Assembly: GCF_000260965.1 (NCBI RefSeq)
Contig: NC_017856.1
Location: forward strand, 1,560,001-1,592,000
Length of the DNA stretch: 32,000 nt
Direction of reading: 5' to 3'
Source: Methylophaga frappieri
Lineage (GTDB): Bacteria > Pseudomonadota > Gammaproteobacteria > Nitrosococcales > Methylophagaceae
Shown piece after piece: positions 5,044-30,300 of this stretch. The position numbers were made by a program, and so were the translations under genes. Under the pieces are notes generated by a model. It had not been told where the DNA came from. It searched no databases and saw only the letters and a program-made list of their open reading frames with translations. Each line of letters begins with the position of its first letter. Position 1 is the first letter of the stretch.

Positions 5044-5265
5044 TTAATACTCTTCCGCCGAGGAGGTTTTAGCATTCGAGGGCGTCATTGGGTTTGATGG
5101 GAAAGGCAAGAAATCTTCCCGATATTCATTTGCGGAAAAGTAATTCAGCGCACGCTGAACGTCCTCATTGTCGAAGAGGTCAGCTGCCAAAGCGATTTGT
5201 GCGATAACCTGATAAGCTTGGCCCATAATATCCGCTTCGCGATTTTGTGTTTCTTCTACAGACAT
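5044..5265 (-). CDS. small leaderless hypothetical protein (73 aa)
   Basis: ATG ORF whose stop lies 23 nt upstream of the start of the PDZ gene on the same strand. It is acidic with no leader. The SD is weak and an alternative start exists at 5226. Confidence 0.45.
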   Translation of the reverse strand: MSVEETQNREADIMGQAYQVIAQIALAADLFDNEDVQRALNYFSANEYREDFLPFPSNPMTPSNAKTSSAEEY

Positions 5266-5352: not shown

Positions 5353-5369
5353 CTAACCATCCTGGTTAG
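5353..5369. repeat. palindrome CTAACC-N5-GGTTAG overlapping the kinase stop codon
   Basis: Perfect 6-bp arms with a 5-nt spacer. It shares the CTAACC arm with the palindromes at 6774 and 7624. No T-run follows, so it is not a classical terminator. Confidence 0.3.
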
Positions 5370-6700
5370 GATCTCATAGCCGCGTTAAAATGCAATGTAG
5401 CCCTGAGCCCCGGGTTAGCATTTTCCAGCGACAGCTTTGCGCCATGACGGATCGCAACGGCTTCCACATGGCGCAGACCAAATCCATGCCCGCCTGAATC
5501 CTGGCGACGGCCTAAAGCTGCCAGCAGATCCAGCGTTGTATCCTCAATGCCGGCCCCATAGTCACGCACACTTAACGAGAACCGGTAACCATCGTGTTTG
5601 AGCGTTATCAGTACCGTTGAGCCAGGTGGTGCGTATTTCAATGCATTTGAAATCAGGTTGACCAAGGCACTCTCAATAAGTGGTCTGGATCCCAGTATTT
5701 CTGCCATCTCGCATAAGATCTCCTGTTTCAAGGTGACAGCGCTTTCTTCAAACGCATCAGCATAGAGTTGAACAACCGATTGTACGACGCTCTCAAGATT
5801 GAGCGGCTTCATGGCAAAGCCTGGTGTTGCCTCGATTTTTGCAAGCTCCAGAATATGGGTGACGAGTTCAATCAGCTGGTCAGCTTCAGCGGCGATCTCG
5901 GTATTGCCAGCGGCGACTATCTGATTGCGTAGATTCGATATGGCGTGATTAAGCTCGTGTGCTGCGACCTGGCTGTAGGATTCAAGGCCGTGCAGCAGGC
6001 GCTCGACTTCAGCCAAAGCCTTGTCAATATTGACAGACAATTGTGAAAGCTCATCACCAGACCCAGCCTTCGGTGTTGAAAAAATTCGGGCAGACAGGTC
6101 GCCTTCCTCAATGCGTTGAAAAACAGCATTGATACGTCTAATTCTGCTACGAAAGCGGTGATTGAGGGATCCCAAAAGAAGAGAGCTACAAAGACCGAGA
6201 AAAATAACAGCCACTATCATCACTGGAACAAACCAATGATTCAATGACTCTCGCGCACTCAGGCGGCGGCCGACGACAAGCGCAAAATCCGGTTCAATAT
6301 GAACGCGGTGTAGAAGCAATGGGCCTGCGGCTATTCCAATGTCTACGCCATCCAGTTCTATCCAGGGATCTGACGGGTGATTCGGCATTCGTTCCGCATT
6401 GCCGATGATCTTTTCGCCATTGGAATTAGCCAGCAAATAGACTGCGCCGTTTTCCCCACTTTCATCTCCCGATAGGCGTATACCTATGTTCTTCATTAAA
6501 ATAGTAATGTCGGGAATAATGCCGCGCTCTGGCGCCCGTTCCAGCATAACCGCTATGTCGCGAGATACATCCTCTTTGACTGATCGCTCAACCGCAATAT
6601 TGATCGCGCTGTAGGCCGTAACCCCGGCAATCAAGGCAACCAGTAGGGTCACCAGTATATTGATGAGTAGAGCAACAACGATTGGATTTCTGGCTCGCAC
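5366..6700 (-). CDS. membrane sensor histidine kinase (444 aa)
   Basis: GTG start with GGGAGGG SD. Two TM helices flank a periplasmic segment of about 130 aa. HAMP-like segment RIRRINAVFQRIEEGDLSARI, H-box AAHELNHAISNLRNQ, N-box LVNLISNALKYAPPGS, G1 VRDYGAGI, G2 GGHGFGLRHV. Confidence 0.9.
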   Translation of the reverse strand: MRARNPIVVALLINILVTLLVALIAGVTAYSAINIAVERSVKEDVSRDIAVMLERAPERGIIPDITILMKNIGIRLSGDESGENGAVYLLANSNGEKIIGNAERMPNHPSDPWIELDGVDIGIAAGPLLLHRVHIEPDFALVVGRRLSARESLNHWFVPVMIVAVIFLGLCSSLLLGSLNHRFRSRIRRINAVFQRIEEGDLSARIFSTPKAGSGDELSQLSVNIDKALAEVERLLHGLESYSQVAAHELNHAISNLRNQIVAAGNTEIAAEADQLIELVTHILELAKIEATPGFAMKPLNLESVVQSVVQLYADAFEESAVTLKQEILCEMAEILGSRPLIESALVNLISNALKYAPPGSTVLITLKHDGYRFSLSVRDYGAGIEDTTLDLLAALGRRQDSGGHGFGLRHVEAVAIRHGAKLSLENANPGLRATLHFNAAMRS

Positions 6701-6762: not shown

Positions 6763-7617
6763 TTACTCGTCACCTAACCGATTGGGTTGGTTTGCTTGTT
6801 GTCGTTCCATTGATGTGGCCACGGTTTTGGCATTGCCACTGATGAAAACCAGTACATCAATCCCTGAATCACCATTATTCTGCAGGTTGATTTCGATTTC
6901 AGAATGGTCGCCTGGTGGGACAAAGCAAGGCAGCCGCGCTGCAGTCGTCTCCGGGCAAATGACACTTTTCCAACTTTCTTCATTTTGGGCATAACGCGAG
7001 ATGTTCATGGTGATTTTGGCTGCTGTTTCAAGGTGTTGATGGCCGGCAGGTTGGGCGTAGATCGTTGTGCCTTGACTTCCATCAACAGGTAATCTGATGC
7101 TGTCTTTTTCAGCAGGGGAGAGGGTTGCTTGTACTTCCAGCCCTATGGTCATTTTGACTTCCCGCAGGCTGCCAATGATGCCGGCAAATCCACCAAGTAG
7201 ACTGGGCTGCGTAGCTGGCGTTAGAGGAGATAACTGTTCAATTCGGCGAAGCGTGTCTTCATCATCGGCAGCCATACGGTTGGCAGCCTCTACCATGTCG
7301 CGAGCTGACGCCAGGATTGCTGATCGGCGTTGGTCAGATTTGAGATCAAAACGGTGAGTGTTTTGTTCCAGAGTGTTTGAGTCAAGCTGTTCAACCAGGT
7401 TCAAGCGCGATTTTGCGGCGCGCGCCATGCCATAGGCGTCACCTGCCGCTTGTCGATCCAAAAAGCTGACCTCGGACTGGTAAAGAGCACTCGCAAGCGA
7501 AGAGTCAAAAGGGCTCGAAGCGTCATATGATAATTTTGGAGGTGTCTTTGTTTGCGTAAGGCATCCGGTGATCAGTAGGGAGGTAAGCCCCAAGGTTAAT
7601 AGTCTGGAATAGCTCAA
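6763..7617 (-). CDS. lipoprotein of unknown function, first gene of the kinase operon (284 aa)
   Basis: TTG start. Leader MSYSRLLTLGLTSLLITGC contains the lipobox LITGC. Its stop lies 62 nt upstream of the kinase start on the same strand. No family recognised. Confidence 0.7.
   Translation of the reverse strand: MSYSRLLTLGLTSLLITGCLTQTKTPPKLSYDASSPFDSSLASALYQSEVSFLDRQAAGDAYGMARAAKSRLNLVEQLDSNTLEQNTHRFDLKSDQRRSAILASARDMVEAANRMAADDEDTLRRIEQLSPLTPATQPSLLGGFAGIIGSLREVKMTIGLEVQATLSPAEKDSIRLPVDGSQGTTIYAQPAGHQHLETAAKITMNISRYAQNEESWKSVICPETTAARLPCFVPPGDHSEIEINLQNNGDSGIDVLVFISGNAKTVATSMERQQANQPNRLGDE
6774..6790. repeat. imperfect palindrome CTAACC-GATTG-GGTTGG between lipoprotein and kinase genes
   Basis: Same left arm as 5353 and 7624, with one mismatch in the right arm. 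It shares CTAACC..GATTG with the 7624 copy. Confidence 0.25.
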
Positions 7618-7623
7618 AAGTGT

Positions 7624-7641
7624 CTAACCTCGATTGTTAGG
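7624..7641. promoter_or_regulatory. palindrome CTAAC-N7-GTTAG in the 82-bp divergent intergenic region of the two-component locus
   Basis: Lies between the lipoprotein start (7617) and the regulator start (7700). This is a candidate operator position and the third copy of the CTAACC arm. Confidence 0.3.
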
Positions 7642-7699
7642 TGCGGAAAGCGTGTTTTCGGGGTACTCTGGCCAAGATGATATAGGAAAGCGAAAGGAA

Positions 7700-8428
7700 A
7701 TGTCTGAAACCAGTAACGTACTCATTGTTGAGGACGACCCGGTAATTGCATCGCTGATGGCTGATGTTGCTGGCGAACTTGGCTATGGGATTAGTCAAGC
7801 AGAAACCCTCGACCAGGCCAAGCGGCAGAGCGTCACGCAGCTGCCTGATCTGGTTATTCTCGACCGGATGCTGGGGGACGGTAGCGAGGGGCTCGATTAC
7901 ATCGAGTGGCTGAACGCACTGGAGGGAAAGCGCCCTGGGATTCTCATCGCCAGCCGCCTGAGCTCTGTGAGTGACCATGTGCTGGGCTTAGAGACGGGCG
8001 CTGATGATTACATCAACAAGCCATTCGAACGCGAAGAGTTGAGGGCGCGCCTGCGTGCTGTTGCGCGTCGTGCAGCGTCCAATCGAGCACCGGCGAGTGT
8101 GCTGATTTTTGACACACTCGAAATCAGAAAATCGAGCGCCCAGGCGTTGGTCAACAACACACCACTACCGCTTCGCCCGCAATCATTTGCACTGTTGAAG
8201 GCGATAGCCGAACGCCAGGGAGAGTGGGTCAGTCGCAAGGCGCTTTGGCATGAAGTGTGGACGGATTACAAAAACCTGTCGCCGCAAGACACGGTTATCA
8301 ATACCGCCATTAGCCGTTTACGGGGTGTGTTGTCTGCCGTAGAGGGCGCACCGGAGATTGTCAGCGAAAACTTGGGCTACCGTCTGGTGAGCCAGAATGA
8401 CAGACTTTTGGACTCTGAAACTGTATAG
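7700..8428 (+). CDS. OmpR/PhoB-family response regulator (242 aa)
   Basis: Trimmed to the ATG at 7700 (AAAGGAAATG). Receiver: VLIVEDDP, DLVILDRML (acceptor Asp), GADDYINKPF. Winged helix: LRPQSFALLKAIAERQGEWVSRKAL...INTAISRLRGVL...GYRL. Confidence 0.9.
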   Translation: MSETSNVLIVEDDPVIASLMADVAGELGYGISQAETLDQAKRQSVTQLPDLVILDRMLGDGSEGLDYIEWLNALEGKRPGILIASRLSSVSDHVLGLETGADDYINKPFEREELRARLRAVARRAASNRAPASVLIFDTLEIRKSSAQALVNNTPLPLRPQSFALLKAIAERQGEWVSRKALWHEVWTDYKNLSPQDTVINTAISRLRGVLSAVEGAPEIVSENLGYRLVSQNDRLLDSETV

Positions 8429-8442
8429 GGAAATCATTAACT

Positions 8443-9222
8443 ATGGGTGTTCTAACCACCATTAAAAAGCGATTGAGCACCTTGCTAGGCGGTAAACACA
8501 CTCAAGTGGCAGCCCTGCCTGAAAAAACAGCGGCACCTGTCTCGCTGTGGCTCGATCAACGCATTGTCAATGTCGCTTACGAGACCTTTGCTTACATGCT
8601 GAAAAATTATCATACAGCGGGGGTGATCGACCATGCGGCATGGATCATAAACGACGCAGATCTCCAGAGAATGATCTCAATGCTTGAGCCTTACGTTACA
8701 ACAGCGCATCGAGGTGTCAATCTGCAGATGAGCACGGATGAACAGGACGATTTCGTCCGGCTGCTGGATTATGCCGGGTTTGCTGCGCAGACACTGGCTG
8801 ATCGAGTGCTGCTTGAGATGGTATACGAGGCCTGTAGTGACGATGGTTATGGCAAAGATCGGAACTATAACGATCAGCTCTATATTGTCCTGGAATTTAC
8901 GCCTGAAGAACTCTCAGCCCATAATCGGGTTTTTCAGAAAATGATTGATGACCCTGAGTGCATCGACAACTCAATGTACGATCTCACCGAGTGGGATAAA
9001 TTCGTAGCACTCGTTGCAAAGCTGAAACAGATTGATGAAAGCACGAAATCGCCCGTGGTTGTGCCAATGACTTTTAGTGAATGGGCGACTTACAGCTCGT
9101 ACAGCTCGCATGCATTTGATCTCGACGATGGAGAGCTGACCGAGGAGGAGGAAACTGCGATGTCAAAAGTCATGTCATTTAACTCTGTAATTTTGAGAGG
9201 GAATGCTCGAATCAAAGCGTAA
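8443..9222 (+). CDS. leaderless acidic hypothetical protein (259 aa)
   Basis: The ATG is 14 nt after the regulator stop. No leader or TM. Acidic C-terminus DLDDGELTEEEETA. No family recognised. Confidence 0.75.
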   Translation: MGVLTTIKKRLSTLLGGKHTQVAALPEKTAAPVSLWLDQRIVNVAYETFAYMLKNYHTAGVIDHAAWIINDADLQRMISMLEPYVTTAHRGVNLQMSTDEQDDFVRLLDYAGFAAQTLADRVLLEMVYEACSDDGYGKDRNYNDQLYIVLEFTPEELSAHNRVFQKMIDDPECIDNSMYDLTEWDKFVALVAKLKQIDESTKSPVVVPMTFSEWATYSSYSSHAFDLDDGELTEEEETAMSKVMSFNSVILRGNARIKA

Positions 9223-9242
9223 GTATGGAAGATAAATAGCAC

Positions 9243-10451
9243 ATGAAAGTTTACCTCGACGATGAACGCAAGACTCCAGACGGCTGGGTCAGGTGTTATT
9301 GGCCAGATGAGGTCATTGAGCTGCTTTATTCTGGCGAGGTAACGGAGATCAGCCTTGACCATGACCTCGGCGATGATGAGCGAGGCACGGGTTATGATGT
9401 GTTGCTATGGATTGAAGAAGCGGTTGGCGGGCGCGGCTGGCAACCGCCAAAAATATCGGTCCATTCGGCGAATGCATCAGCCCGGCAAAAGATGGAGGCC
9501 GCAATCCGCCAGATAGATAAACTAACCGCAGCTCAGCGTGACTATGAAAAACACTGGGAAGATGGAAAGTTTCTAATGATCTGGGATAGAAGCAAACCGG
9601 CCTGGTTTATCCCGGAAGCAGGTGAACCTGTATTGCTGGCGGGCAGCGCTGAGGTATCCAAATTATTTGATCTTGGTGACGGAACCGTTCTCGGCGTTGA
9701 TTTTGGCTGGAAGTGCTATCGCAAAGAATTTCTTGATGACGGCTGGCGGCGACCACTAACCCCTCAGCCCATGGCGATCTGGAATGCGCAAACGGGGGTG
9801 TGCACAGGCTATTTGCAGGGTCATCATCTGGGCGATGTAACAGGCGCAGAGCTGCTCGATGATAATCGCCTGATTACCTGGGGCCGCGATTATCTTGTGC
9901 GCGTCTGGAGTCGCCAGTCCGGTGAATGTACTGATATTTTGCCGCTGCCTTTGTGGCCGGAGCCATCAGATCGTCGTGCGGTCTTGTCATGCGAGCAGTT
10001 TGGCCAGATGAAGCCTTCCGAAAAACAGCGCTACATCAACACCCGCCATCTACCGTCACCAGATGTACGCATTGACTGGATCGTCAGGCCGGGTGGAAAG
10101 CAGTACAGTTTCAAGTGCGCGGCTCAATCTGAAAAGGCGCAAAAGGTGGTAAAACCCTGGCAGCCAAACACGGAACAGCACGCGAGCTACCGGATATGGG
10201 ACCTTGCTGGCGCAGAGGCGGGCTATTCAGACTGGTTTATTACGTCAGACGGGCGTCTTTGCGGCGGTGGAACCACTTATGGCGCTTCAGGGCAAATTTA
10301 CGTTTGGGACGGGTTTTACACTTTGCAGATGCTGATTGTTGGCAGGCATGACTGCAATATGCACTTAAAGGGCGAAGTGGAGCCAAACGTGATCGTTATC
10401 GAAAATACGCTGGGTATTGATGCGTTCGACAGCTACAGGTTTCAACTCTGA
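9243..10451 (+). CDS. cREC-like divergent receiver domain fused to WD40-like repeats (402 aa)
   Basis: The N-terminal roughly 95 aa, MKVYLDDERKTPDGW...EISLDHDLGDDERGTGYDVLLWIEE...ISVHSANASARQKM, match from memory the cyclic-phosphate-processing receiver (cREC) signature LDDxR..P.GW / S.DHDLG / TGYD / HS.N. The C-terminal part has WD-like units IWNAQTGVCTGYLQGHHLGDVTGAELLDDNRLITWGRDYLVRVWSRQSGEC and YRIWDL...GQIYVWDG. Confidence 0.75.
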   Translation: MKVYLDDERKTPDGWVRCYWPDEVIELLYSGEVTEISLDHDLGDDERGTGYDVLLWIEEAVGGRGWQPPKISVHSANASARQKMEAAIRQIDKLTAAQRDYEKHWEDGKFLMIWDRSKPAWFIPEAGEPVLLAGSAEVSKLFDLGDGTVLGVDFGWKCYRKEFLDDGWRRPLTPQPMAIWNAQTGVCTGYLQGHHLGDVTGAELLDDNRLITWGRDYLVRVWSRQSGECTDILPLPLWPEPSDRRAVLSCEQFGQMKPSEKQRYINTRHLPSPDVRIDWIVRPGGKQYSFKCAAQSEKAQKVVKPWQPNTEQHASYRIWDLAGAEAGYSDWFITSDGRLCGGGTTYGASGQIYVWDGFYTLQMLIVGRHDCNMHLKGEVEPNVIVIENTLGIDAFDSYRFQL

Positions 10452-10452
10452 T

Positions 10453-11229
10453 ATGGACGACAGACTCCTCATCATTGGTGATGTTCATGGCATGCTCGAT
10501 GCGCTTCGCCAGCTTGTCGATGAACTGGATATTCAGCCTTCGGACACGCTGGTTTTTGTGCGCGACCTGATCGACAAGGGGCCGGACTCTATCGGTGTTC
10601 TACGTTATGTTGAAGCACTGCGTCGCCATGCCAGCTTTGAAGTTGTTCTTGTTGAAGGGAATCACGAAGACCGGATGCGTCGTTACTTACGCAACCGTAA
10701 ACTGCGGCCGAACGTTGCCACGGAACAGGCCGTCCGCGCACCTGAACTGGCATTACTGCACAAACAGCTAGACGCGGAAAGGTTAGCATTTCTGGATGGG
10801 TCAGTGCCGTTTTTTCACTACAAGCCGCTTGATGTGCTTGTCGTTCACGGTGGTATTCCTGGCACCATGAGCACATTCCCTTCGTCAATCGACGAGGCAA
10901 GACGGCTGACTGGCCGAGCAGCAAAACGCTTTGAAAAGATTTTTCGTACGCGCTATGTCGATGCAGCTTCAGGCGAGTTTCTCGCCCTCGGCGCCCAGCG
11001 CCCAGAAGATCCATTCTGGGCAGAGACGTATGATGGCCGGTTTGGGCATGTTGTATTTGGCCATCAGTTGTTTCTCGAAAGGCCAGCAGAGTTTCCCTAC
11101 GCCACAGGTATTGATACCGGTGCGGTTCACGGTGGCGGGCTGACGGCACTCGTTTGGGCGCCTGATGCACCACGCCGATTCCTTACGGTCCAATCCGACT
11201 GTTTTATTCCGTATACCGGGATGTACTAA
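10453..11229 (+). CDS. PPP-family (ApaH/PrpE/lambda-phosphatase-like) metallophosphoesterase (258 aa)
   Basis: Trimmed to the ATG at 10453, 1 nt after the upstream TGA. Motifs: GDVHG, RDLIDKGP (variant of GDxxDRG), GNHE, VVHGG, FGH, IDTGAVHGGGLT. Confidence 0.9.
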   Translation: MDDRLLIIGDVHGMLDALRQLVDELDIQPSDTLVFVRDLIDKGPDSIGVLRYVEALRRHASFEVVLVEGNHEDRMRRYLRNRKLRPNVATEQAVRAPELALLHKQLDAERLAFLDGSVPFFHYKPLDVLVVHGGIPGTMSTFPSSIDEARRLTGRAAKRFEKIFRTRYVDAASGEFLALGAQRPEDPFWAETYDGRFGHVVFGHQLFLERPAEFPYATGIDTGAVHGGGLTALVWAPDAPRRFLTVQSDCFIPYTGMY

Positions 11230-11279
11230 CCAGATAAAAAGAGGGAATCGTCGTTCCGATAAGCAAAGGAGAATATCAG

Positions 11280-13742
11280 ATGCGCATAACAGCCGCTGAG
11301 GCCAGATTTTCATTATTTCTATGCATGTTGGCAGCCCCGCTGCAAGCGCAGTCAGAGGTCTCTGAAAAGTCGGCTCAGGCTGCTGCACAGAGAATAACAG
11401 AACACATGGTGGCCACGCTGCCGCACTGTTTGAAGCTGGGTGCCTCTGCCTGGAACAGCAAGTTGACGAACGCCGGAGCGTACCAATACGGTCTGGTTGT
11501 GAACGTGATCCAGCCATCTTGCAGTGCTGAGCAAGCCGGGTTACGCGTTGGCGATATGATCGTGCGTTTTCATGGTAAGGCATTGTCGCAAGCGGCAAGC
11601 CTGCCCCAGCTGGTGAGCACCGATCAGCAACCGGGGGTGGAGCTGCACTATATTCGTGCAGGAGAAGGGCTGCGCACGGCGCAAGTCACCTACGCCAGTA
11701 ACCGGCCTGTGCAGGACAGTAAGCAGCGACAGGCAATGCTTCTGCCCGATAAACAACTGACAGCGCAATGTGAAATCCTCTTTGGGGACTTCACGGACAG
11801 AAAAAGTCTTGACCCTTCGTCTCTGACGTCCTTCGCCGCGTGCGGCCCAGCGAAAAGCCCAGCCTACTGGTTCTATGACGCCGAGATAAAATATGAGCAG
11901 GCGAAGCAGGCCCGGACGGCCGGACAGCAGGATAAGGCCAGTGAATTGATGCAGGCGGCCTCAAAGTCCTACGGTGTGGCCGATGACTATGGCAAGTCTG
12001 GTGCACAAAAGCGCGCGGCTGATGTTCTGGCTGAAAGTGAGTCTTTTCAGCGTGTTGAAGGCCTGGAAAGTCGCAAAATTCAGGACGCCCGTCTTCTCTA
12101 TCAAGATGCCAGCGGCAAATATTACGGCGCTATCGTCACCCATCGCAATGGTTGTCCGCGGCAGGCCAATCTCTACGAACAGGAATTAAAGATCTTTGTC
12201 GAACGCATACCGGATGCAAAGGGTGTCTTCTTCAATGCAACGCTGGCTAAAGCAAAACCGCAGAAGGAGGCTCCGGCCCAGGACGGCCTGAACTATGGGG
12301 AGGATGAGATCGCCCGTATTGCAAACCATGTCCTGCCCAATGTTGATCGCATTTTTCCGGAATGGCGCGCGCATCCGATGTGGAAACACTATAAGGATCG
12401 CGTGATCGTCGAATTCTATATTCAGGATCTGCATCTGCAAACAACGCGTGATTTCGATTATTCAGGCACCGCCGAAGATGCCGTATTCTGGATGTTGCTG
12501 AAGCGACAAGGCAGTGGCGGAAAATGGCGTCCGGCCTATGAGGTGGACGGCTTGCTCGGCCACGCCGAAACCGTCGATCGCCTCACTGTTGCAAGCGTTC
12601 TGCAGCGCCGTAAACGCGTTGATGATGGCGTGAGTGATGACCGAAAAATGATCCTCGCCATGTTTGACCGCCACAAGGTAGCTGCAGCGAAAATGCAGAC
12701 TGATATACAGAACGCCTATGCCCGCAGGCTGGTCACAGACCGGCGTTCGGGGATCGTCAACAAGCCTGGTTCATATTGGAAGCAATACGCGAATTTCGAC
12801 ACACCCCGGAATGTCATCGAAGGCAACTTTCACTTCATTGAACACCCGGCCGAATTTGCTGAAGCCTACCTCACCTATGTGTATCAGTACTATGAGGTCT
12901 GCGAACCCCACTTGCCAGCAGGCCGGAAATCCTACACCGCAACCTGGTTTGAAACGCGTTATGGCGTAACCTCACAGACCAGTTCCTCTTACGTTGAAAT
13001 GGCTCCGCGGTTTGCGACAGCCTTTGAGAAAATGGGGGATATCAAGTACAAGAAGGATACTTCCGCTTTCCTGATGTCGATCGTCAACTCCATGGCTGAA
13101 GTAGAAGGTCGTAATCCCTTCTCTTTCGTTGGTGAAACTCTGACGGGGCTGGCAAAGGATCTCGTTACAGACCGGGAAACAGCCCGTTTCCTGCGCACGG
13201 AAGGCTGCACCTCTCCGATCGTTCGGCAATATGGCGAAAATCTGTGGCGCGGCGCGAATGGGCGGTCGTCTGCACAAAGAGCTGGAATCTCGTTTGTGGG
13301 GGCAGATGCAGCCAGCGCCGACTATGAGCGCGCCGATACTCGCCGCTTTATGGATGAGACCATCGCTGCGCGCGCCCGCAACCCCGGTCCCAAGGCGCAG
13401 GGATATGCCTATTATGATGAAAATCTGGTCGCCTACCGGACCGGCATGGGCATGGCCAATGATGGCCGGCGTCAGGTTCCCGCCATGCGCACGGTCGGTC
13501 TCGAACTGGAAAAACGCGGCTATCCCGTACTTTACTGCAATTACGGCCCAACCGGCTTCTATGACAATGGTGAGTACAAGACCCTGAGCTACGCATTCTG
13601 GTACGAGCAGAAGCCCGCCGAGCTGGACCGCCTGTTGGCTGCACGCAGCAAAGAGACGGATGTCTATAAGGGGATGAAATATGCTATCTCGGCCTGCCCG
13701 ACCAACAGCCTTGATGCGCTTGCGATTATCAATGGGAAGTAA
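11280..13742 (+). CDS. Sec-exported PDZ-domain protein, 2-Cys module family (member B, 820 aa)
   Basis: AAGGAG SD and leader MRITAAEARFSLFLCMLAAPLQA. PDZ: YGLVVNVIQPSCSAEQAGLRVGDMIVRFHGKAL (about 11487-11700). Mid-domain LLYQDASGKYYG, YGEDEIARIANHV, RPAYE. Module at 12771-13320 (VIEGNF, YYEVC, EGCTSPIVRQYGENLWRGANGRSSAQRAG) has Cys codons at 12900-12902 and 13206-13208. A unique tail of about 140 aa follows. Confidence 0.9.
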   Translation: MRITAAEARFSLFLCMLAAPLQAQSEVSEKSAQAAAQRITEHMVATLPHCLKLGASAWNSKLTNAGAYQYGLVVNVIQPSCSAEQAGLRVGDMIVRFHGKALSQAASLPQLVSTDQQPGVELHYIRAGEGLRTAQVTYASNRPVQDSKQRQAMLLPDKQLTAQCEILFGDFTDRKSLDPSSLTSFAACGPAKSPAYWFYDAEIKYEQAKQARTAGQQDKASELMQAASKSYGVADDYGKSGAQKRAADVLAESESFQRVEGLESRKIQDARLLYQDASGKYYGAIVTHRNGCPRQANLYEQELKIFVERIPDAKGVFFNATLAKAKPQKEAPAQDGLNYGEDEIARIANHVLPNVDRIFPEWRAHPMWKHYKDRVIVEFYIQDLHLQTTRDFDYSGTAEDAVFWMLLKRQGSGGKWRPAYEVDGLLGHAETVDRLTVASVLQRRKRVDDGVSDDRKMILAMFDRHKVAAAKMQTDIQNAYARRLVTDRRSGIVNKPGSYWKQYANFDTPRNVIEGNFHFIEHPAEFAEAYLTYVYQYYEVCEPHLPAGRKSYTATWFETRYGVTSQTSSSYVEMAPRFATAFEKMGDIKYKKDTSAFLMSIVNSMAEVEGRNPFSFVGETLTGLAKDLVTDRETARFLRTEGCTSPIVRQYGENLWRGANGRSSAQRAGISFVGADAASADYERADTRRFMDETIAARARNPGPKAQGYAYYDENLVAYRTGMGMANDGRRQVPAMRTVGLELEKRGYPVLYCNYGPTGFYDNGEYKTLSYAFWYEQKPAELDRLLAARSKETDVYKGMKYAISACPTNSLDALAIINGK

Positions 13743-16597: not shown

Positions 16598-16942
16598 GGT
16601 GATATTTTCCCTGATCGGGTGGTGCGCAAGACTTCAAAATTTTATAATTTTCTGTGATCTGTGACAAGTTTAGTCTTCGCTTCCCTTCGTTTCCTGCTTG
16701 TATGCCACTAAGAAGCGCAAACCTACTGCTGAATTTTTCTCGGAAAAATGGAAGATGTTAGCGATCTCGGAGCGGAGCAATCGATGTCAGTCAGTGTGTA
16801 AAGCTGGTGACCGACAGAGAGCGAATAATAACCGAAAAGGTTATTTGTCGCATTCAGCGAAATGCTTGATACTGTTCGAGAGCATAGGTTCTGTACGAAT
16901 CTAAAAGATGTTACCGCCAAACTGAAAAGAGAAGATGTGACC

Positions 16943-18403
16943 ATGATTTTGACCCGAATATTACTTTTATTTTCAGTCTTGGTAATTGCTGGCTGCTGGC
17001 AATCTGAAGACTATATTTATAGCACCGACGATTATTTTTTGCCGGTACAAGGTGACCTAGTGACTATCAGTGACGAGTTCGGGCCGCTTGGTGTTTATTC
17101 AATCAATTCTGAAAATCAATATGTACCCGTTTTTAAAGAGGCAGAGAAAAACTCGTTCGAACAAAAGTTTAGATTGTTCGATATAGGCTTTATTCCAGTG
17201 GATCGAATGGCAGCTTATAAAGAACCGCGTGAAGACTGGCAGGCGAATCCTACATTTTCCAGATCGATTTTTCAGGATGAAGAGACCCTGCTGTTTATTT
17301 CCACTCTGCAGCAAGCTGAGCAGCCAGGCCAATTGGTGTTAGCGAGTTTTGTCTCGAACGACGTCATTGGCATATGCTCAACCCTTCTTCAAAAAGGAAA
17401 GGGTCTGCATAAAGAATTTTCGGAATTTGCTTCAATACACGCCCCCGAACAGGCGTTCACCAGAAAGGCCGGAATAGCGATGCTTGTTCTGAACGAAGTG
17501 ACGGAAGCTAAACGCCGCGGTGAACTGCAATGTGATGAATACAAAATAGAGACGCATAGCCACGGCGATCAGGATGGGCTCTTTGAAGCCGTGAGTAGAG
17601 GTGATGCTCTGCGCAAGGCGCAAACGAAACAACAGATGGCTAAGATGAAGGCTGGTGCCGTAGAGCTGGCCGAGGCGCGTGCTTCCCGGCAAACAGCTGA
17701 AAATGCAGGGGTATCAGAAAAGACAGAACTTACACCTAAGGAGCAACTTGCCACTTTGAACCAAAAGCTGTCCATCTTGCACCGGGGAGCCTATGACATC
17801 AATAATGAACTGGACGTTGAACGCTGGGGTACACTTGATGGTGTTGGCGGCAAATACTTCGGGGTTGAACGAAATTTCCGCGACCGGGGACTCTTATTCA
17901 AAAGCAAGATGCTTTGCCACAACCTCTCAGGTTATCAGGCAATTTACGTAACAGTCACCCATGCATCCTCTTCGGCAACGAATGCTGAATGGGCGGTGAG
18001 GCGGGGCGATTCGATACCGGTTCGAATAGAAACTGAATGCGGTACCATCATTCATAACGCTGCATTAAAGCAGGTCAACAAAACGCTATACACCAATACG
18101 TTGAGTCTTACTTTCGCCGATTTGATTCCATCCAGGCGAGACAACAAATACGTTCAGGATCCGGCAGCGCTTGAGCGCGCTCGAATTCAGGCCAAACTCT
18201 TTGGAACGTCCGTAGAGGGGTTGACGAAGATGGCGGGGGGCTTTCTTTCGCTAGAAGAGGCGATGAAATCCAAGACTTTGAAAATCTACGCCGATATCAG
18301 ACAGAATGGTGCGGTTCGGACTGTGATGTTAGGTGATTTTGGCTCAGAGTCTGATGAAAAAGGGTTTAAAGGGTTCCACGCTGCCTGTTTGTTTGGCAAA
18401 TAG
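16943..18403 (+). CDS. lipoprotein of unknown function with central coiled-coil segment (486 aa)
   Basis: Trimmed to the ATG at 16943. Leader MILTRILLLFSVLVIAGC contains the lipobox VIAGC. Central helical stretch KAQTKQQMAKMKAGAVELAEARASRQTAEN. It does not carry the family module. Confidence 0.8.
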   Translation: MILTRILLLFSVLVIAGCWQSEDYIYSTDDYFLPVQGDLVTISDEFGPLGVYSINSENQYVPVFKEAEKNSFEQKFRLFDIGFIPVDRMAAYKEPREDWQANPTFSRSIFQDEETLLFISTLQQAEQPGQLVLASFVSNDVIGICSTLLQKGKGLHKEFSEFASIHAPEQAFTRKAGIAMLVLNEVTEAKRRGELQCDEYKIETHSHGDQDGLFEAVSRGDALRKAQTKQQMAKMKAGAVELAEARASRQTAENAGVSEKTELTPKEQLATLNQKLSILHRGAYDINNELDVERWGTLDGVGGKYFGVERNFRDRGLLFKSKMLCHNLSGYQAIYVTVTHASSSATNAEWAVRRGDSIPVRIETECGTIIHNAALKQVNKTLYTNTLSLTFADLIPSRRDNKYVQDPAALERARIQAKLFGTSVEGLTKMAGGFLSLEEAMKSKTLKIYADIRQNGAVRTVMLGDFGSESDEKGFKGFHAACLFGK

Positions 18404-18588: not shown

Positions 18589-20058
18589 ATGAAAAATCGA
18601 GTTCGAACAATTGTCTATCAGCTATTCATGTCCTTCGTCATGTTGTGGTCATTTGGTATGTTCCCAACGATTGCCTCTGCACAAACACCGGAAGAGATGA
18701 ACAAAGCTCTGCAAGACTTATTCGGGCAAGCGGGTGTAGAAATGAAAAAACCGGCCGCGCAAAGACGGCAGGAAGAAAGAGACCGTATACAAAAAGCGCG
18801 TGAAGCCGCAAGTAAAATTCCACCTGCTGCTAATTTGGAAGGTGCTTGGCGTTTAACTGCGCATGATAAATCGCTCGATCTCGTTCTATATGAGACGAAG
18901 GGCAGCTCATATGCTGAAAAAATTTATGACGGATTTGTCCAAGACGCGGTGAGCAACTGTGTCCTGCCAGTCAATATACGTATCCCGGACAGACATCCTC
19001 ATCCGGTCGTCGCGACTTATAGCACGAACCGATACTATATTCAGACTGATGGTGGGCAGATAACAGACCATTCCAAAGTCTATCCGGAATTGATGACTGG
19101 CAATTGCGGCGGCGGGTCGGAAGACGTGATGGCACAATCCAGCCTGTATGGTCGGCTTAATTTAGCAGCAGATCGCCAATGGTCAGGCAAGCTTGCAGTC
19201 AATAGACGTATTGATGCGACACAATTAGAGGCAACGTTAATACCCTCTACGATAACACCGATTTTGAGAGAATACCTTACCACCGTAAAACTAACTCGTG
19301 AAGGAATTCCCGAGAAAAGTATCTATGCGTCTATGGCCCCGAAGAATAACCCTTTCGCGGATAAAGAGTTGCAGGGTAAGGATGCAGAATTGGTCGGAGA
19401 ATTGCCCACAGGTGGGACTTATGTAGAGGCCATTTATCGGAATTTGCCGAATAAGGTTGCTGTGGCTGATCGTCGTTTTGCAAGACTTTATGTGAAGGCT
19501 ATGACAGGAGAAGGAAACCGGGCCTACCAAGATTTAAGCTCTTTATTGTCAGGTAAAGGGTTTTTGACAGAGCGCGAAAGAGCCGCAATGGATGAATGGG
19601 TCGCCAATCAAAGCCTGTTACCGGCCGCCTACGTCACCTATCTTTTCCGTTATGAGGATACATTTCCGCAATGTATGGGGCCGAACCCAAAATCTGTTCA
19701 TATTCCTTGGGTGGCAATCACCAAAACTGATTATGGTTTTGGCGTTCAGTCAGAGCGGGTGACGTCTTCGAACACCATCGTTCACACCGTGCCAGAACGC
19801 CTTTATGATCGACTTGTACCCATAAGCCGAGCAGATCCTTACCAGGCAGAAGCTTCAGATAGAATTTTGAACCTGATGCATGGTGATAAAGAGCGTTTGG
19901 TAGTATCTGACGTCACAGCTGCCACACATGCGTTCATGAGCAAGCTATCATGCAATACGCCTGAAAAATCTCAGTTCGAGGCAAATTTATTTTCGATGTA
20001 TGACAAACACAATGCTGCGCAAAATGAACGCATGGCCCGTGCGAATGGGCATAAGTAA
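18589..20058 (+). CDS. Sec-exported protein, 2-Cys module family (member F, 489 aa)
   Basis: Leader MKNRVRTIVYQLFMSFVMLWSFGMFPTIASA. Module: AAYVTYLFRYEDTFPQC ... FMSKLSCNTPEKSQFEANL, with Cys codons at 19672-19674 and 19951-19953. The N-terminal 190 aa are duplicated at 31433 onward. Confidence 0.9.
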   Translation: MKNRVRTIVYQLFMSFVMLWSFGMFPTIASAQTPEEMNKALQDLFGQAGVEMKKPAAQRRQEERDRIQKAREAASKIPPAANLEGAWRLTAHDKSLDLVLYETKGSSYAEKIYDGFVQDAVSNCVLPVNIRIPDRHPHPVVATYSTNRYYIQTDGGQITDHSKVYPELMTGNCGGGSEDVMAQSSLYGRLNLAADRQWSGKLAVNRRIDATQLEATLIPSTITPILREYLTTVKLTREGIPEKSIYASMAPKNNPFADKELQGKDAELVGELPTGGTYVEAIYRNLPNKVAVADRRFARLYVKAMTGEGNRAYQDLSSLLSGKGFLTERERAAMDEWVANQSLLPAAYVTYLFRYEDTFPQCMGPNPKSVHIPWVAITKTDYGFGVQSERVTSSNTIVHTVPERLYDRLVPISRADPYQAEASDRILNLMHGDKERLVVSDVTAATHAFMSKLSCNTPEKSQFEANLFSMYDKHNAAQNERMARANGHK

Positions 20059-23646: not shown

Positions 23647-23910
23647 TCACCTTTCGTCTGATTTCCGGCGGAGATCAACAAACGGGCAGACGGTTGTGGA
23701 CTTGTTTTTTGCGCCGTCTTTTCCATTGCCTGAAGATATCTCGAAACAACGCTCTTCCCCATCCTGTATCTCAAGGGCGTGTCCGTTCGTGCGTTGATCA
23801 TCTTGCGGCGATGGAACAGGGGATGAGCAGGCGGCGTTCAGGACGCAGAGACTTGCAACGGCGAGTACAGATTTAAAACTGTCATCGTTAAAGTTGTCTT
23901 TTGCGCTCAT
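23647..23910 (-). CDS. small putative lipoprotein (87 aa)
   Basis: Trimmed to the ATG at 23910, overlapping the end of member C by 23 nt. Leader MSAKDNFNDDSFKSVLAVASLCVLNAAC has a non-canonical lipobox. The mature part has Cys in CFEISS and VCPFVD. Confidence 0.45.
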   Translation of the reverse strand: MSAKDNFNDDSFKSVLAVASLCVLNAACSSPVPSPQDDQRTNGHALEIQDGEERCFEISSGNGKDGAKNKSTTVCPFVDLRRKSDER

Positions 23911-26107
23911 TCGCCTCAGCCCTGAGAGCCTGAACCTGCTCACGCAATTGTTCGCCAGCGGCTCTTTGTTTTTGCTCGTAGTCTTTGAGCAGACGGGTAC
24001 GCTCGGGTCCGGAAACCGTGGTTATCTGCTTCATGAACACTTCGGCCTCTTCGACCTGCGTTTGATGCTGCGCCTGTATCAGAGCCTGAACTTTCTTATC
24101 GGTTTCCTGGTCAATCTGGCGGATACGCTGACGGCGGTCTGCGGTTGCCTGACGTGCGCTGTCTTGTTGGGGTTGTTGGCTTTGACCCCGTGTTTTGGGG
24201 GCAGGCGGCCTGTTCTCGGAGGGGACTGTCGGTTCTTCCGTTATTCCCATATGCTGCATGGTGAATTCGATAGTGTTTTGCAGGTCGTTGTACCTTTGCG
24301 AATTTTCCGGCGTTTGATTGCGCTCCTTGATCAACTCGATCAGGCGCTGCTCAAGGTTTTGCCTGTTTTGGGATTGGGCCTGTGCCGCTTCTCGCGTAGC
24401 TTCTTCCAGCTCATCCAGTGATTGCTCGGCATCGCGTGCGGCGCGATTGAAATTATCCTGACCTTCTCCGGTAACGTGATCCACTTCCCGGTTGAATTCC
24501 TTTTCGCTCATTGTCGGCGTTTTCCAGTCTTCCCCGAATAGACCGCCCCCGCCAAAAGCTGCAACCGCTGCATTGACGGTTTCATTCTCTTCCTGCACGT
24601 TCGCGACAGGGGTAAAGGGCGGTGGCGGTGCTCCTGTCTTTGTGGGTGCATCGCTTTCCGTTGCCGCTCCGGCAAAACGCAGCCCGGCCTGCTGCACCGA
24701 TGGCTGGCCGTTTGCCGCGCGGATAAAGTTATCTGTCATTTGACGGACAGTCGCGCTGTCACATGCATGAGTCTTGAGGAAAGTTTCCATCTCCCCGCGC
24801 AGGCCAAGCACAAGCCCGAAGCCCTGAAAGATACCCTGATCCAGAACGGCCCTGTTGAGGTCGGAGTCAAACTGCGCCCAGTGCGCGCCGAACCGTGCAT
24901 CAATCCGGTAGGTCTTGGTTTGCTCCGAGGTATGGATGGTTCTCGATCCGTCGAGATTATGATCCGTGCCTTCATAAGCATCGTAATTGCGCTCGAAAGT
25001 TTGCCACTGCTTTACATGGGCTTTGCAGCGTTTGGAATAGGACATGGCCAAGCCAGTGTAGAAAGCTTTGAATTCCGGTGTATTGCGGTACTCGCCAAAC
25101 TCTCCCTCGAAGATGCGCCGGGCGATATCAAACCCGTCATAGCGCCCCCAATAGGGATCGAGTTTGTAGACGATGCCCTCGCGACGCCCAGCTTCATAAG
25201 CGAATGCTTTCCGGTAATCTCCGGCACTTTCGGCTTTTTGCAGTTCGCCCTTGATAAAGCCCGCGAGGGTTAGCTCCGGGTTTTCCTGCGGATCAGCAGT
25301 GATGCCCCGTGATGATCTGATAGCACGGCAAGCCGGTGTATCACAGCGATTGAAGTTCAGCCGGTTGTTTTCGACCTCGTAGCCAAAAGATAAAACAGGC
25401 TTGTCACTCTCCCCGTAGCGGAATGCATTTTTATAATAGTGAGAACTATAGGCTCCATTGGTCTTGCCGCATGTGCCCAGGAACAAACTGACGATATCGT
25501 TCAGGCTCTTGATAAACCTGTTATCGGGTTGATCGCCGGAAAATGGCAATATTGTTTGCGTAGGATGAGATGGTGTATGAAGTATATTGAAATCGACTTT
25601 GGTTGCACCAGCCTTGGATATGGCAGCATTCCGCGATGCATCTATTGCGTCTGTTTGTTCTAAATAGCGCGCCTTGAGGTCTTTATTTTCCTCCATCAAT
25701 CTGGCCATGTCCTCTGTCAACCGTTTGACCTCTGGCCCACTCAGTTTTTGGCTTCTTAACGTATTCCCGATATCCGTGAGAGCTTGTTGAATGCGCCTCT
25801 CTTCTGGTTCATGGGCGAGGCGTAAAGCCTCTTGGCGGGTATTGAATTCAGCTTCGGCTTTTGCCCTGTCAGCAACGGCTAATCCTATAGAGCAAACCGC
25901 TTTGCCATTGTTGAATTCCGCTTGATTTGAATAGACCTCGTAATTATCGCTGCGCCCGATCATCACACCCATCCGTTCCAGTCTTGTGGCACGTTTTTCT
26001 TCTAGCGTTGCCGCCTGGAGTGAGAGGGGCAGAAACAGGATCGCCATCCATACCATCAGTGTCAGGGTTGCTTGAATCCTTTCAATACTATCGCCGTACC
26101 TTGTCAT
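23888..26107 (-). CDS. Sec-exported protein, 2-Cys module family with long coiled-coil tail (member C, 739 aa)
   Basis: Trimmed to the ATG at 26107 (GAGGA SD). Leader ...TLTLMVWMAILFLPLSLQA. Module at 24650-25159 (IFEGEF, SYSKRC, THACDSATVRQMTDNFIRAANGQPSVQQAG) has Cys codons at 25025-25027 and 24761-24763. The C-terminal roughly 250 aa are Q/E/R-rich helical. Confidence 0.9.
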   Translation of the reverse strand: MTRYGDSIERIQATLTLMVWMAILFLPLSLQAATLEEKRATRLERMGVMIGRSDNYEVYSNQAEFNNGKAVCSIGLAVADRAKAEAEFNTRQEALRLAHEPEERRIQQALTDIGNTLRSQKLSGPEVKRLTEDMARLMEENKDLKARYLEQTDAIDASRNAAISKAGATKVDFNILHTPSHPTQTILPFSGDQPDNRFIKSLNDIVSLFLGTCGKTNGAYSSHYYKNAFRYGESDKPVLSFGYEVENNRLNFNRCDTPACRAIRSSRGITADPQENPELTLAGFIKGELQKAESAGDYRKAFAYEAGRREGIVYKLDPYWGRYDGFDIARRIFEGEFGEYRNTPEFKAFYTGLAMSYSKRCKAHVKQWQTFERNYDAYEGTDHNLDGSRTIHTSEQTKTYRIDARFGAHWAQFDSDLNRAVLDQGIFQGFGLVLGLRGEMETFLKTHACDSATVRQMTDNFIRAANGQPSVQQAGLRFAGAATESDAPTKTGAPPPPFTPVANVQEENETVNAAVAAFGGGGLFGEDWKTPTMSEKEFNREVDHVTGEGQDNFNRAARDAEQSLDELEEATREAAQAQSQNRQNLEQRLIELIKERNQTPENSQRYNDLQNTIEFTMQHMGITEEPTVPSENRPPAPKTRGQSQQPQQDSARQATADRRQRIRQIDQETDKKVQALIQAQHQTQVEEAEVFMKQITTVSGPERTRLLKDYEQKQRAAGEQLREQVQALRAEANERKRQL

Positions 26108-26348
26108 AGGTTCGATCCTCACTTAAATCGCTAGGTTTTCTAATGTCTTGCGGTGCGCCCATTCCTATACGAGATCGGAAATGGATCCTTTTTAGCCTGC
26201 CGGGATGTGTTGAGGCGGGGGCTTTCGAACCCCGTAGACTGCGGTAGTGCACTCATCATCAAAAAAAATATGAAAACCATAACAAAAAGGATCTTTTTTA
26301 TCTATTTTGCGTGGAAACTAAGTGTGAACGAAATTAAAGGGGCGGAAT

Positions 26349-28719: not shown

Positions 28720-29071
28720 CGTTCGCAATTTCCCTAGACTCCGATACTTGACTAACGAGTATAACATCGCAACATTACGAGTCGTAACCCCTCGACGGCA
28801 GGGTGGGGTTTAAAACCCGGCAGCATAGGTAATTCCGAGTTATCGTTTTCATACATATGGAAAGGAAACCCGCTGGACTTCACCGCAAGACTGGCGACGC
28901 TGTTGTCGAAGTCGGGTATGACCCTGACGGTTTCATGGGCCCAATGGCCCGAATTTCCGGCCATGCGGTTACGCTATCGGGTTTTGGTTGCTAGAGGCTC
29001 ATGGCTGGCAGTTACCCTATGGCCAGAGGCGGATTCCGACTCGCCCACTAACCAGAATGAGGGACCCTACA

Positions 29072-30280: not shown

Positions 30281-30300
30281 GTGTGTCTGAGGTCAGGGCT

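Follow-up and report, generated by a model that had tools for sequence, protein, structure and literature searches.

A lineage-restricted gene cluster of Methylophaga frappieri in which a cREC–WD40-like protein accompanies a two-component system

The cREC-X gene cluster

The subject of this work is a 32,000-nucleotide (nt) stretch of the Methylophaga frappieri chromosome, referred to below as the window, and within it the gene of a cytoplasmic protein of 402 amino acids (aa), called here cREC-X, that combines an N-terminal cREC domain with a diverged WD40-like C-terminal domain. Judged from the orthologues of its genes and from their order in other assemblies, the window carries a real, small and lineage-restricted cluster built around one two-component system, of which cREC-X is a near-constant member. 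The window comes from a 2.70-Mb contig, and the 402-aa protein and its 259-aa neighbour are 100% identical to Q7C_1565 and Q7C_1564, respectively. The genes and sites of the cluster, in window positions, are the following:

5044..5265, − strand: small acidic protein of 73 aa, its gene downstream of that of the kinase; conserved cluster member with no family match
5353..5369: palindrome CTAACCATCCTGGTTAG, a candidate operator, which overlaps the stop codon of the kinase
5366..6700, − strand: sensor histidine kinase (Pfam HAMP and HATPase_c; two membrane helices by sequence inspection)
6763..7617, − strand: putative lipoprotein of 284 aa, with which the kinase operon begins (lipobox LITGC; no family match)
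6774..6790: third copy of the palindrome, CTAACCGATTGGGTTGG, with one mismatch, upstream of the kinase start
7624..7643: palindrome CTAACCTCGATTGTTAG(GTG) of the divergent promoter, with the regulator ATG ~60 nt downstream
7700..8428, + strand: OmpR/PhoB-type response regulator (Pfam Response_reg, 2e-18; Trans_reg_C, 3.7e-11)
8443..9222, + strand: 259-aa acidic cytoplasmic protein (pI 4.7, no signal peptide)
9243..9509, + strand: cREC domain, residues 1-89 of cREC-X (PF20274, phrog_1479, motifs)
9510..10451, + strand: linker helix and diverged WD40-like beta-rich domain, residues ~100-402 of cREC-X (AlphaFold2 (AF2), Foldseek, profile search)
10453..11229, + strand: PPP-superfamily metallophosphoesterase of the ApaH/PrpE/Pnkp-phosphatase type (Metallophos, 8e-14), starting 1 nt past the cREC-X stop
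11280..13742, + strand: secreted protein of 820 aa that closes the string, with a signal peptide and a probable PDZ domain

The string of five co-directional genes led by the OmpR-type regulator, as described in the original prediction, was confirmed by the listing of open reading frames (ORFs), which gives five + strand ORFs at 7700..8428, 8443..9222, 9243..10451, 10453..11229 and 11280..13742, with gaps of 14, 20, 1 and 50 nt. Longer ORF starts exist for the regulator (7634) and for the phosphatase (10417), and the N-termini seen in the orthologues correspond to the ATGs at 7700 and 10453. Since all the genes of the string but that of the PDZ protein have conserved orthologues in other assemblies, they can be considered real. 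The string has a G+C content of 48–56%, compared to 41–47% in its flanks. Concerning transcription, a consensus scan detected no intrinsic terminator in the gaps of the string. Over the whole region it returned 14 terminator-like sites versus 11.5 ± 3.5 expected by chance, and the scan for sigma-70 promoters and intrinsic terminators within the string gave no more hits than chance. With no terminator in the gaps and scan hits at chance level overall, a single transcript from the regulator promoter is compatible with the sequence.

Domains of cREC-X

The N-terminal domain had been proposed to be a cREC rather than a canonical receiver, and the profile searches bore this out. Residues 1-89 matched profile positions 1 to 87/88 of Pfam cREC_REC (PF20274) with an E-value of 9.4e-28 and 97.2 bits versus a cut-off of 27, and the domain matched phrog_1479 with 3e-25, while the canonical receiver profile Response_reg (PF00072) gave no match to cREC-X at E ≤ 0.1. 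The UniRef name of the protein is, in fact, already that of a cyclic-phosphate processing receiver domain protein. The expected motifs LDDER (D6, D7), SLDHDLG (D39-H-D41), TGYD and HSAN are all present, with S75 intact, and the acidic residues are conserved in the window protein and in all its orthologues except P0009, encoded in locus L011. The AF2 model of the domain contains four strands and three helices within 98 residues, without the alpha-1 helix after strand 1 and without the beta5-alpha5 element bearing the conserved Lys, so that, in the model, the cREC of the window is a shortened receiver-like fold. The contrast is with CheY, alpha-1 being the helix by which canonical receivers dock on kinases. 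No solved structure related to the domain by sequence was found, even at E ≤ 10.

The closest other cREC proteins carry as C-terminal partners RF-1/peptidyl-tRNA hydrolase, YbaK, GNAT, nucleotidyltransferase and Macro domains, and further HD, SpoT-type HD, His_Phos, PfkB and UDG domains; as a set, these fusion partners point to RNA/tRNA-end or nucleotide chemistry. Phage homologues of the domain reach 47% identity. Phosphatases are also found among the fusions. P0070 and P0073 join a cREC to a phosphatase of the ApaH/PrpE type, 28% identical to the window phosphatase over its full length, and P0095 joins it to another Metallophos type. The neighbourhood of P0070 is an island with PP2C, FtsK, dynamin-like and S24 peptidase genes. 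In addition, P0040 (L031, 645-3244) is an independent fusion of cREC with canonical WD40 repeats, overlapped by 4 nt by an upstream hydrolase of the metallo-beta-lactamase fold with a weak match to the RNA-specific RMMBL (19.8 bits versus 21.6); by its domain content, that locus is a second pair of a metallo-hydrolase and a cREC-WD40 protein.

Concerning the C-terminal part of cREC-X, the predicted WD40-like fusion was upheld in kind. A clear WD40 repeat lies at residues ~174-233 (9762-9941), and it can be taken as genuine because the profile of the domain matches thousands of long multi-WD40 proteins repeatedly at that place. The AF2 model of the 402-aa protein has a pLDDT of 74, with two low-confidence segments. 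Searched with Foldseek against the PDB, it retrieved WD40 propellers at the top (E ~3e-6, probability 1.0), but with a TM score of only ~0.2 and a root-mean-square deviation of 13-16 Å, and the Pfam propeller matches were far under their cut-offs (19 bits versus 154). So, the label WD40-like is justified by the repeat and the model, and it does not extend to a closed propeller or to a blade count. Relatives of the domain also occur as standalone proteins of ~300 aa (P0013, L020-L023), and the neighbourhoods of L020-L023 are unrelated to one another. In P0009 (L011, 5973-7184; 64% identity overall) the cREC motifs have decayed, LDDER to LGVER and DHD to DFE, while the WD40-like part has been kept, so that the C-terminal domain must have a function of its own. 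A 303-aa WD40 protein encoded upstream of cREC-X in the order called B below was considered as a paralogue of this domain and ruled out, as no significant pairwise similarity was found.

Gene orders across genomes

By their domains, the regulator and the HAMP/HATPase kinase, in which the H-box AHELNH is visible, correspond to a two-component system of the OmpR/PhoB family. The regulator did not reach any NCBIfam equivalog cut-off and is therefore not assigned to a characterized regulon. The orthologues of cREC-X (53–94% identity) were found only in a few marine metagenome or metagenome-assembled genome (MAG) contigs, and a search of 2.9 million viral contigs gave no relative of it. The loci show nine gene orders (A, B1, B2, B3, C, D, F, L037 and L039), which are given below together with a deleted variant, proteins without a name being designated by their lengths:

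Order A (window, L012-14, L032): small protein ← kinase ← lipoprotein; divergent regulator → 259 → cREC-X → phosphatase
Order B1, regulator side (L001-4, L035): 227 (homologue of 259) ← 450 ← regulator
Order B1, divergent side (L001-4, L035): lipoprotein → kinase → 82 → Lcl_C protein → WD40 protein → cREC-X → phosphatase
Order B2 (L008, plus L015 and L017 from one MAG): like B1
Order B3 (L005/6): like B1, with four genes (3.7 kb) between cREC-X and phosphatase
Order C (L011): regulator ←; divergent lipoprotein → kinase → cREC-X; no phosphatase; cREC motifs decayed (LGVER, DFE)
Order D (L018/19, L033): Lcl_C ← kinase ← lipoprotein; divergent regulator → cREC-X, with a 3-nt gap (L018); no 259 and no phosphatase within 5 kb; cREC motifs intact
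Order F (L038): WD40 protein ←; divergent cREC-X → phosphatase; regulator convergent downstream
L037: no phosphatase within 1.4 kb downstream of cREC-X
L039: FG-GAP protein → cREC-X, LysR convergent; no two-component genes in the 4-kb contig
L036 (order B with a deletion): kinase, 82-aa gene and Lcl_C gene kept; the WD40 gene that precedes cREC-X reduced to 40 aa

Across these arrangements, the kinase/regulator pair is, by the count of gene orders, the most constant neighbour of cREC-X. One or the other of its genes stands beside cREC-X in orders A, B1-B3, C, D and F, and also in L036; a kinase/regulator pair adjoins cREC-X in eight of the nine gene orders. Kinase orthologues (50–90% identity) are beside cREC-X in all the loci with enough flanking sequence except L039, the regulator orthologues are 66–93% identical, and those of the lipoprotein (38–86%) are always upstream of the kinase. 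The lineage of P0009 is the only one with cREC-X directly after the kinase, and there is no phosphatase nearby. Neither the kinase/regulator pair as a partner of cREC-X nor the palindrome that goes with it had been mentioned in the original prediction.

The phosphatase behaves otherwise. It follows cREC-X in about five of the nine gene orders: in A, B1, B2 and F the two genes overlap or are at most 43 nt apart, and in B3 the distance is 3.7 kb. In three lineages they are separated by 1 nt or overlap. The gene orders thus support the predicted pair to the extent that it recurs in A, B1, B2, F and B3, and phosphatase-cREC fusions occur elsewhere; it is missing in C, D, L037 and L039. By this comparison, the phosphatase is a frequent yet dispensable neighbour of cREC-X. 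On the other hand, the prediction that the 259-aa protein, cREC-X and the phosphatase would be conserved as a unit of three did not hold. The 259-aa gene is in the regulator operon in orders A and B, in the latter with cREC-X on the other strand, and order D lacks it; as its positions indicate, it goes with the regulator and not with cREC-X.

Several loci show mobile or variable surroundings. HipBA modules or insertion sequence (IS) transposase genes (rve) flank the cluster in L001 (13204-14759), L011 (199-1673), L015 (9475-11030), L012 (5532-6505) and L005 (14264-16877), the HipBA modules being next to it in L001, L011 and L015. The MAG labels of the related contigs include Gamma- and Alphaproteobacteria and Opitutaceae. 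These flanks and mixed labels, with the G+C contrast noted above, suggest a horizontally moving island, or else mis-binning.

Palindromic sites

The sequence CTAACCTCGATTGTTAGGTG, at 7624-7643, is the only conserved block in the alignment of the divergent promoters from eight loci. In the window it is unique at up to 3 mismatches (0 expected by chance), and the block occurs once per related locus. The consensus of the palindrome is CTAACC-N5-GGTTAG, with the core CTAAC-N7-GTTAG, and the window contains three core sites versus 0.48 expected, a number that was reached in 1 of 100 shuffles. The third copy, at 6774..6790, is conserved in L012, L018, L032 and L033.

In every related locus examined (orders A, B and D, and L036) a CTAACC-N5-GGTTAG site lies no more than ~20 nt from the kinase stop. 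In order B this post-kinase palindrome heads the string containing cREC-X and the phosphatase; in L011 (order C) a variant with one mismatch, CTAACCAAAATCGTTAT, stands between the kinase and cREC-X; and in L038, where cREC-X → phosphatase stands alone, a palindrome with one mismatch lies ~118 nt upstream of the cREC-X ATG. In all, the palindrome is at the start of a cREC-X-containing gene string in five gene orders. Its positions elsewhere are 2948, 5229 and 10088 in L001; 3038, 5315 and ~9284 in L005; 5773 in L011; and 625 in L038. In the relatives it is also found upstream of further cluster genes. From this distribution we infer that the palindrome is probably the operator of the regulator of the cluster, and that cREC-X probably belongs to its regulon.

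The metallophosphoesterase

The gene that starts 1 nt after the cREC-X stop had been predicted to encode a calcineurin-like PPP phosphoesterase, and this was substantiated by its match to Pfam Metallophos (52.9 bits versus a cut-off of 21.5) and by matches to models of the ApaH, PrpE and Pnkp types. In NCBIfam, the ApaH models gave 1.2e-20 (NF001204; 73.9 versus 176) and 47.9 versus 222.85 (TIGR00668), PrpE gave 4.5e-16 (59 versus a cut-off of 340) and Pnkp (TIGR04075) gave 1.8e-20 over positions 184-404 (72.8 versus a cut-off of 750). Against the PDB, the matches were 2qjc (1.6e-13), ApaH structures (~1e-10 to 4e-11) and 4j6o (4.9e-9). Ser/Thr-phosphatase models were also matched, phrog_246 (NinI-like) with 2.8e-27 and the PrpA/B type with 9e-11, these matches covering chiefly the shared N-terminal metal motifs. 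Judged from these comparisons, the enzyme is about equidistant from ApaH, PrpE and the phosphatase domain of Pnkp, and less like the lambda-type Ser/Thr phosphatases. ApaH-like enzymes are Ap4A hydrolases which also decap Np4-capped RNA, trypanosome ALPH1 being an example.

The metal-binding motifs GDVHG, RDLIDKG, GNHE, HGG and GH are present. Motif II reads V-R-D in M. frappieri (codon cgc, 10561-10563) and G-D in all eight relatives compared. The family is large, with 686 clusters at E ≤ 1e-10, and mostly standalone.

Other proteins of the cluster and of the window

The 259-aa protein gave no match in Pfam, NCBIfam, PHROGs or PADLOC, and its homologues amount to 18 clusters only. Its AF2 model (pLDDT 79, pTM 0.75) shows four beta-strand/helix repeats with no fold match in the PDB or among viral models (E > 0.2), so that the protein may have a new fold. 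The 73-aa protein is homologous to the 82-aa gene product encoded after the kinase in L001, L005, L012, L015 and L036 (54–55% identity). As to the last gene of the string, which had been described as a PDZ family member, the domain is probable (Pfam sub-threshold, 22 bits versus 27; NCBIfam DegP-PDZ-region, E 6.7e-8), and the gene is specific to this genome, no orthologue being found in any related locus.

Some observations on other genes of the window are worth recording. Three secreted proteins, at 827-2347 (−), 11280-13742 (+, the PDZ protein) and 23888-26122 (−), share a ~400-aa domain of no family, with 24–29% identity, and a homologue of this domain (39–40% identity) is found in L021 (177-1538), 3.5 kb from a standalone relative of the C-terminal domain of cREC-X, in an unrelated gammaproteobacterial MAG. 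A 489-aa secreted protein (18589-20058) has a 75% identical partial paralogue at the window end (31448-31999). A lipoprotein family without Pfam match is represented in the window (16862-18403, 513 aa), L005 (11239-12705), L011 (9142-10698) and L012 (12807-14084); the member in L005 is located between cREC-X and the phosphatase, and a distant member replaces the PDZ gene in L012. Finally, a 430-aa protein of no known family (28988-30280) is followed 2 nt on by a cytoplasmic protein of the SpoT-type HD family (HD_4; 30283-31191). Fusions of cREC to HD_4 occur elsewhere (P0055), and their similarity to the HD domain of the window is weak (27% identity, E 0.001).

Comparison with known systems

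Comparative genomics was the basis on which the cREC domain was defined (PMC7824862 section 3.4.8; PMC9503650 sections 3.1, 3.4.5 and 3.7.3), and the activity predicted for it is the opening of cyclic phosphates on the ends of RNA or on derivatives of ADP-ribose (PMC7824862 section 3.4.8; PMC9503650 section 3.4.5). It occurs chiefly in phages and prophages (PMC9503650 section 3.4.5). The window protein resembles those phage and prophage proteins in the domain itself, with its conserved Asp pair and DHD motif, in the arrangement of an N-terminal cREC with a variable C-terminal domain, and in its calcineurin-like phosphoesterase companion, since cREC with an occasional phosphoesterase of this kind has already been described in phage RNA-repair neighbourhoods (PMC9503650 section 3.7.3). 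The earlier statement that no system of this composition had been described needs to be tempered in this respect. On the other hand, cREC-X is chromosomal, has no viral-contig relatives and is fused to a WD40-like domain. Its cluster also differs from the published contexts in lacking a sirtuin, KptA, tRNA ligase, kinase, Nudix, Macro or WYL partner and in having a conserved neighbourhood of histidine kinase and response regulator. This last point departs from the published rule that cREC is "never with a histidine kinase" and takes part in no phosphorelay (PMC7824862, PMC9503650); such an exclusion is a generalisation on the context of cREC and not a criterion for the domain itself.

The likeness to Pnkp/Hen1 (4j6o) consists in the full-length alignment of the window phosphatase with the Pnkp phosphatase domain, and in that the removal of 2′,3′-cyclic, 2′- or 3′-phosphates proposed below would correspond to the end-healing step of Pnkp. 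It differs in that neither the protein nor the window has a kinase domain, a ligase domain or a Hen1 methyltransferase, and the score is 72.8 versus 750. An RNA-repair operon of the Pnkp/Hen1 type, or of the phage sirtuin/tRNA-ligase type, was thus ruled out, no ligase, kinase, methyltransferase, sirtuin, Macro or Nudix being found in the window. ApaH, PrpE and ApaH-like proteins provide the best sequence matches of the phosphatase, with the same five metal motifs and the same helical insert, but the scores are below the equivalog cut-offs, the gene lies beside cREC-X in a two-component cluster and not in the housekeeping context ksgA-apaG-apaH, and motif II contains the Arg residue. With classical OmpR/PhoB two-component systems the cluster has in common a HAMP membrane kinase, a receiver-winged-helix regulator, a divergent promoter of autoregulated appearance and a lipoprotein in the kinase operon; unlike in them, the candidate operator is an inverted and not a direct repeat, and the conserved cargo is an enzyme-like cREC protein.

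The original prediction had also raised the placement of the genes in a defence island or prophage. The PADLOC 2.0 scan of 15 window proteins gave nothing significant (best, SduA 0.0018, PDC-S10 0.025 and Cas11a 0.028), there are no tRNA genes or Rfam elements and no phage structural or integrase genes in the window, and no viral contig holds a cREC-X relative. A known defence system or a prophage was ruled out on these grounds. So, as far as these comparisons go, the cluster is not a Pnkp/Hen1 system, an ApaH equivalog or a known defence system. What is new is the architecture and context (the cREC-WD40-like fusion, the two-component link and the candidate operator), not the kinds of components.

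Proposed function and alternative explanations

The function proposed for the cluster, which is put forward tentatively and with somewhat less than even confidence, is that cREC-X and the phosphatase would form a cytoplasmic, two-component-controlled pair that processes phosphoesters on an RNA end or a nucleotide. The kinase and the accessory lipoprotein would sense an envelope or environmental cue, and the regulator would bind and activate the palindrome-bearing promoters, from which the genes downstream would be co-transcribed. If the palindrome is indeed the operator of the regulator, cREC-X and the phosphatase would be switched on by the signal of the periplasmic sensor. The metal-independent cREC domain would open a cyclic phosphate, either at a 2′,3′-cyclic RNA/tRNA end or in a cyclic ADP-ribose-type phosphate, and the binuclear-metal phosphatase would take off the monoester so formed, or else a polyphosphate cap. 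The WD40-like domain would act as a platform holding a macromolecular substrate (RNA or protein) or a partner, the 259-aa protein would be accessory to the regulator and not to the enzyme pair, and the PDZ protein would be a strain-specific passenger.

Several points weigh against this proposal. The phosphatase sequence does not discriminate between substrate classes, as the ApaH, PrpE, Pnkp and Ser/Thr models give similar matches, all of them below their cut-offs. The single-base change from Gly to Arg beside the metal-bridging Asp might weaken the enzyme, or might be a sequencing error. No cREC was found beside the nearest outgroup relatives of the phosphatase (52–58% identity), whose neighbourhoods are unrelated. 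Among the window ORFs scanned there was no family match to RNA ligase, polynucleotide kinase, sirtuin, KptA, Macro, Nudix or methyltransferase. OmpR-family regulators usually bind direct repeats and not palindromes. The phosphatase is not beside cREC-X in orders C, D, L037 and L039, and in D and L039 the cREC motifs are intact. In addition, since all the cREC-X loci derive from one ancestral cluster (53–94% identity), part of the linkage is inherited synteny. Finally, cREC domains are considered "experimentally uncharacterized" (PMC9503650 section 3.1).

An alternative that we regard as a real possibility, though a doubtful one, is that there is no functional coupling at all, the gene arrangement being synteny inherited in a horizontally moving island and the phosphatase a captured ApaH-like housekeeping enzyme. 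The cREC-X loci are all fairly close relatives, the large phosphatase family (686 clusters) is mostly standalone, and several gene orders have lost its member; variability is seen in the PDZ gene and in many neighbours, and IS elements and HipBA flank the cluster. Against mere synteny, cREC-X stays beside the kinase/regulator through repeated rearrangements, the phosphatase keeps a 1-nt or overlapping spacing in three lineages, the palindrome has moved along with the cREC-X unit, and there are independent phosphatase-cREC fusions in unrelated contexts.

It seems unlikely that cREC-X acts in signalling itself, as a non-canonical receiver or adaptor of the kinase (through phosphorylation of D39 or docking by the WD40-like domain), with the PPP enzyme as a dedicated protein phosphatase, so that the module would tune the output of the two-component system with no nucleotide processing. 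A model for such a function is found in E. coli, where PrpA and PrpB modulate the Cpx envelope-stress pathway. It would fit the persistence of cREC-X beside the kinase/regulator through at least six gene orders, including positions directly after the regulator (3-nt gap, L018) and after the kinase (L011), as well as the conservation of receiver-like acidic residues, the phosphatase matches to Ser/Thr models (phrog_246, 2.8e-27; PrpA/B type, 9e-11) and the envelope or secreted nature of the rest of the cluster. However, cREC-X has no Response_reg match at E ≤ 0.1, its AF2 model is a truncated receiver fold without alpha-1 and beta5-alpha5, a canonical cognate regulator is already there, and the Ser/Thr matches lie chiefly on the shared N-terminal metal motifs. 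In the literature, moreover, cREC takes part in no phosphorelay (PMC7824862, PMC9503650).

Very unlikely is a conflict module (anti-phage, counter-defence or toxin-antidote), in which the pair would degrade an immune or toxin-derived nucleotide signal or repair toxin-cleaved tRNA: it would agree with the mostly phage/prophage occurrence of cREC (PMC9503650 section 3.4.5), the phage homologues of up to 47% identity, the island in which the fusion P0070 lies (PP2C, FtsK, dynamin-like, S24 peptidase) and the HipBA modules beside the cluster in L001, L011 and L015, but not with the lack of significant PADLOC matches among the 15 window proteins scanned, of cREC-X relatives in the 2.9 million viral contigs and of phage structural, integrase or tRNA genes in the window, and the membrane sensor kinase with its secreted surroundings fits an envelope or environment response better.

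Significance

The cREC domain is widespread in phages and bacteria and its activity is a predicted one. Here it is found in a small, regulated chromosomal cluster of a cultivable organism, M. frappieri JAM7, and with its probable partner enzyme, its candidate operator and its defined sensor system this cluster supplies handles on cREC function. The gene orders also correct the rule, drawn in the literature from gene contexts, that excludes histidine kinases from the company of cREC. If the genes are indeed coupled, the cluster would tie envelope signalling to the processing of RNA ends or nucleotides; were there only synteny, the outcome would still be a well-annotated island of genes without known function. 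The wider idea that cREC has been wired into a two-component circuit, so that an envelope signal would switch on, or even control directly, the editing of RNA ends or of a nucleotide second messenger by a cREC-WD40/phosphatase module, is at present rather doubtful. If true, it would be the first coupling of bacterial envelope sensing to cyclic-phosphate or RNA-end processing, and the cluster would offer a tractable non-phage model of cREC.

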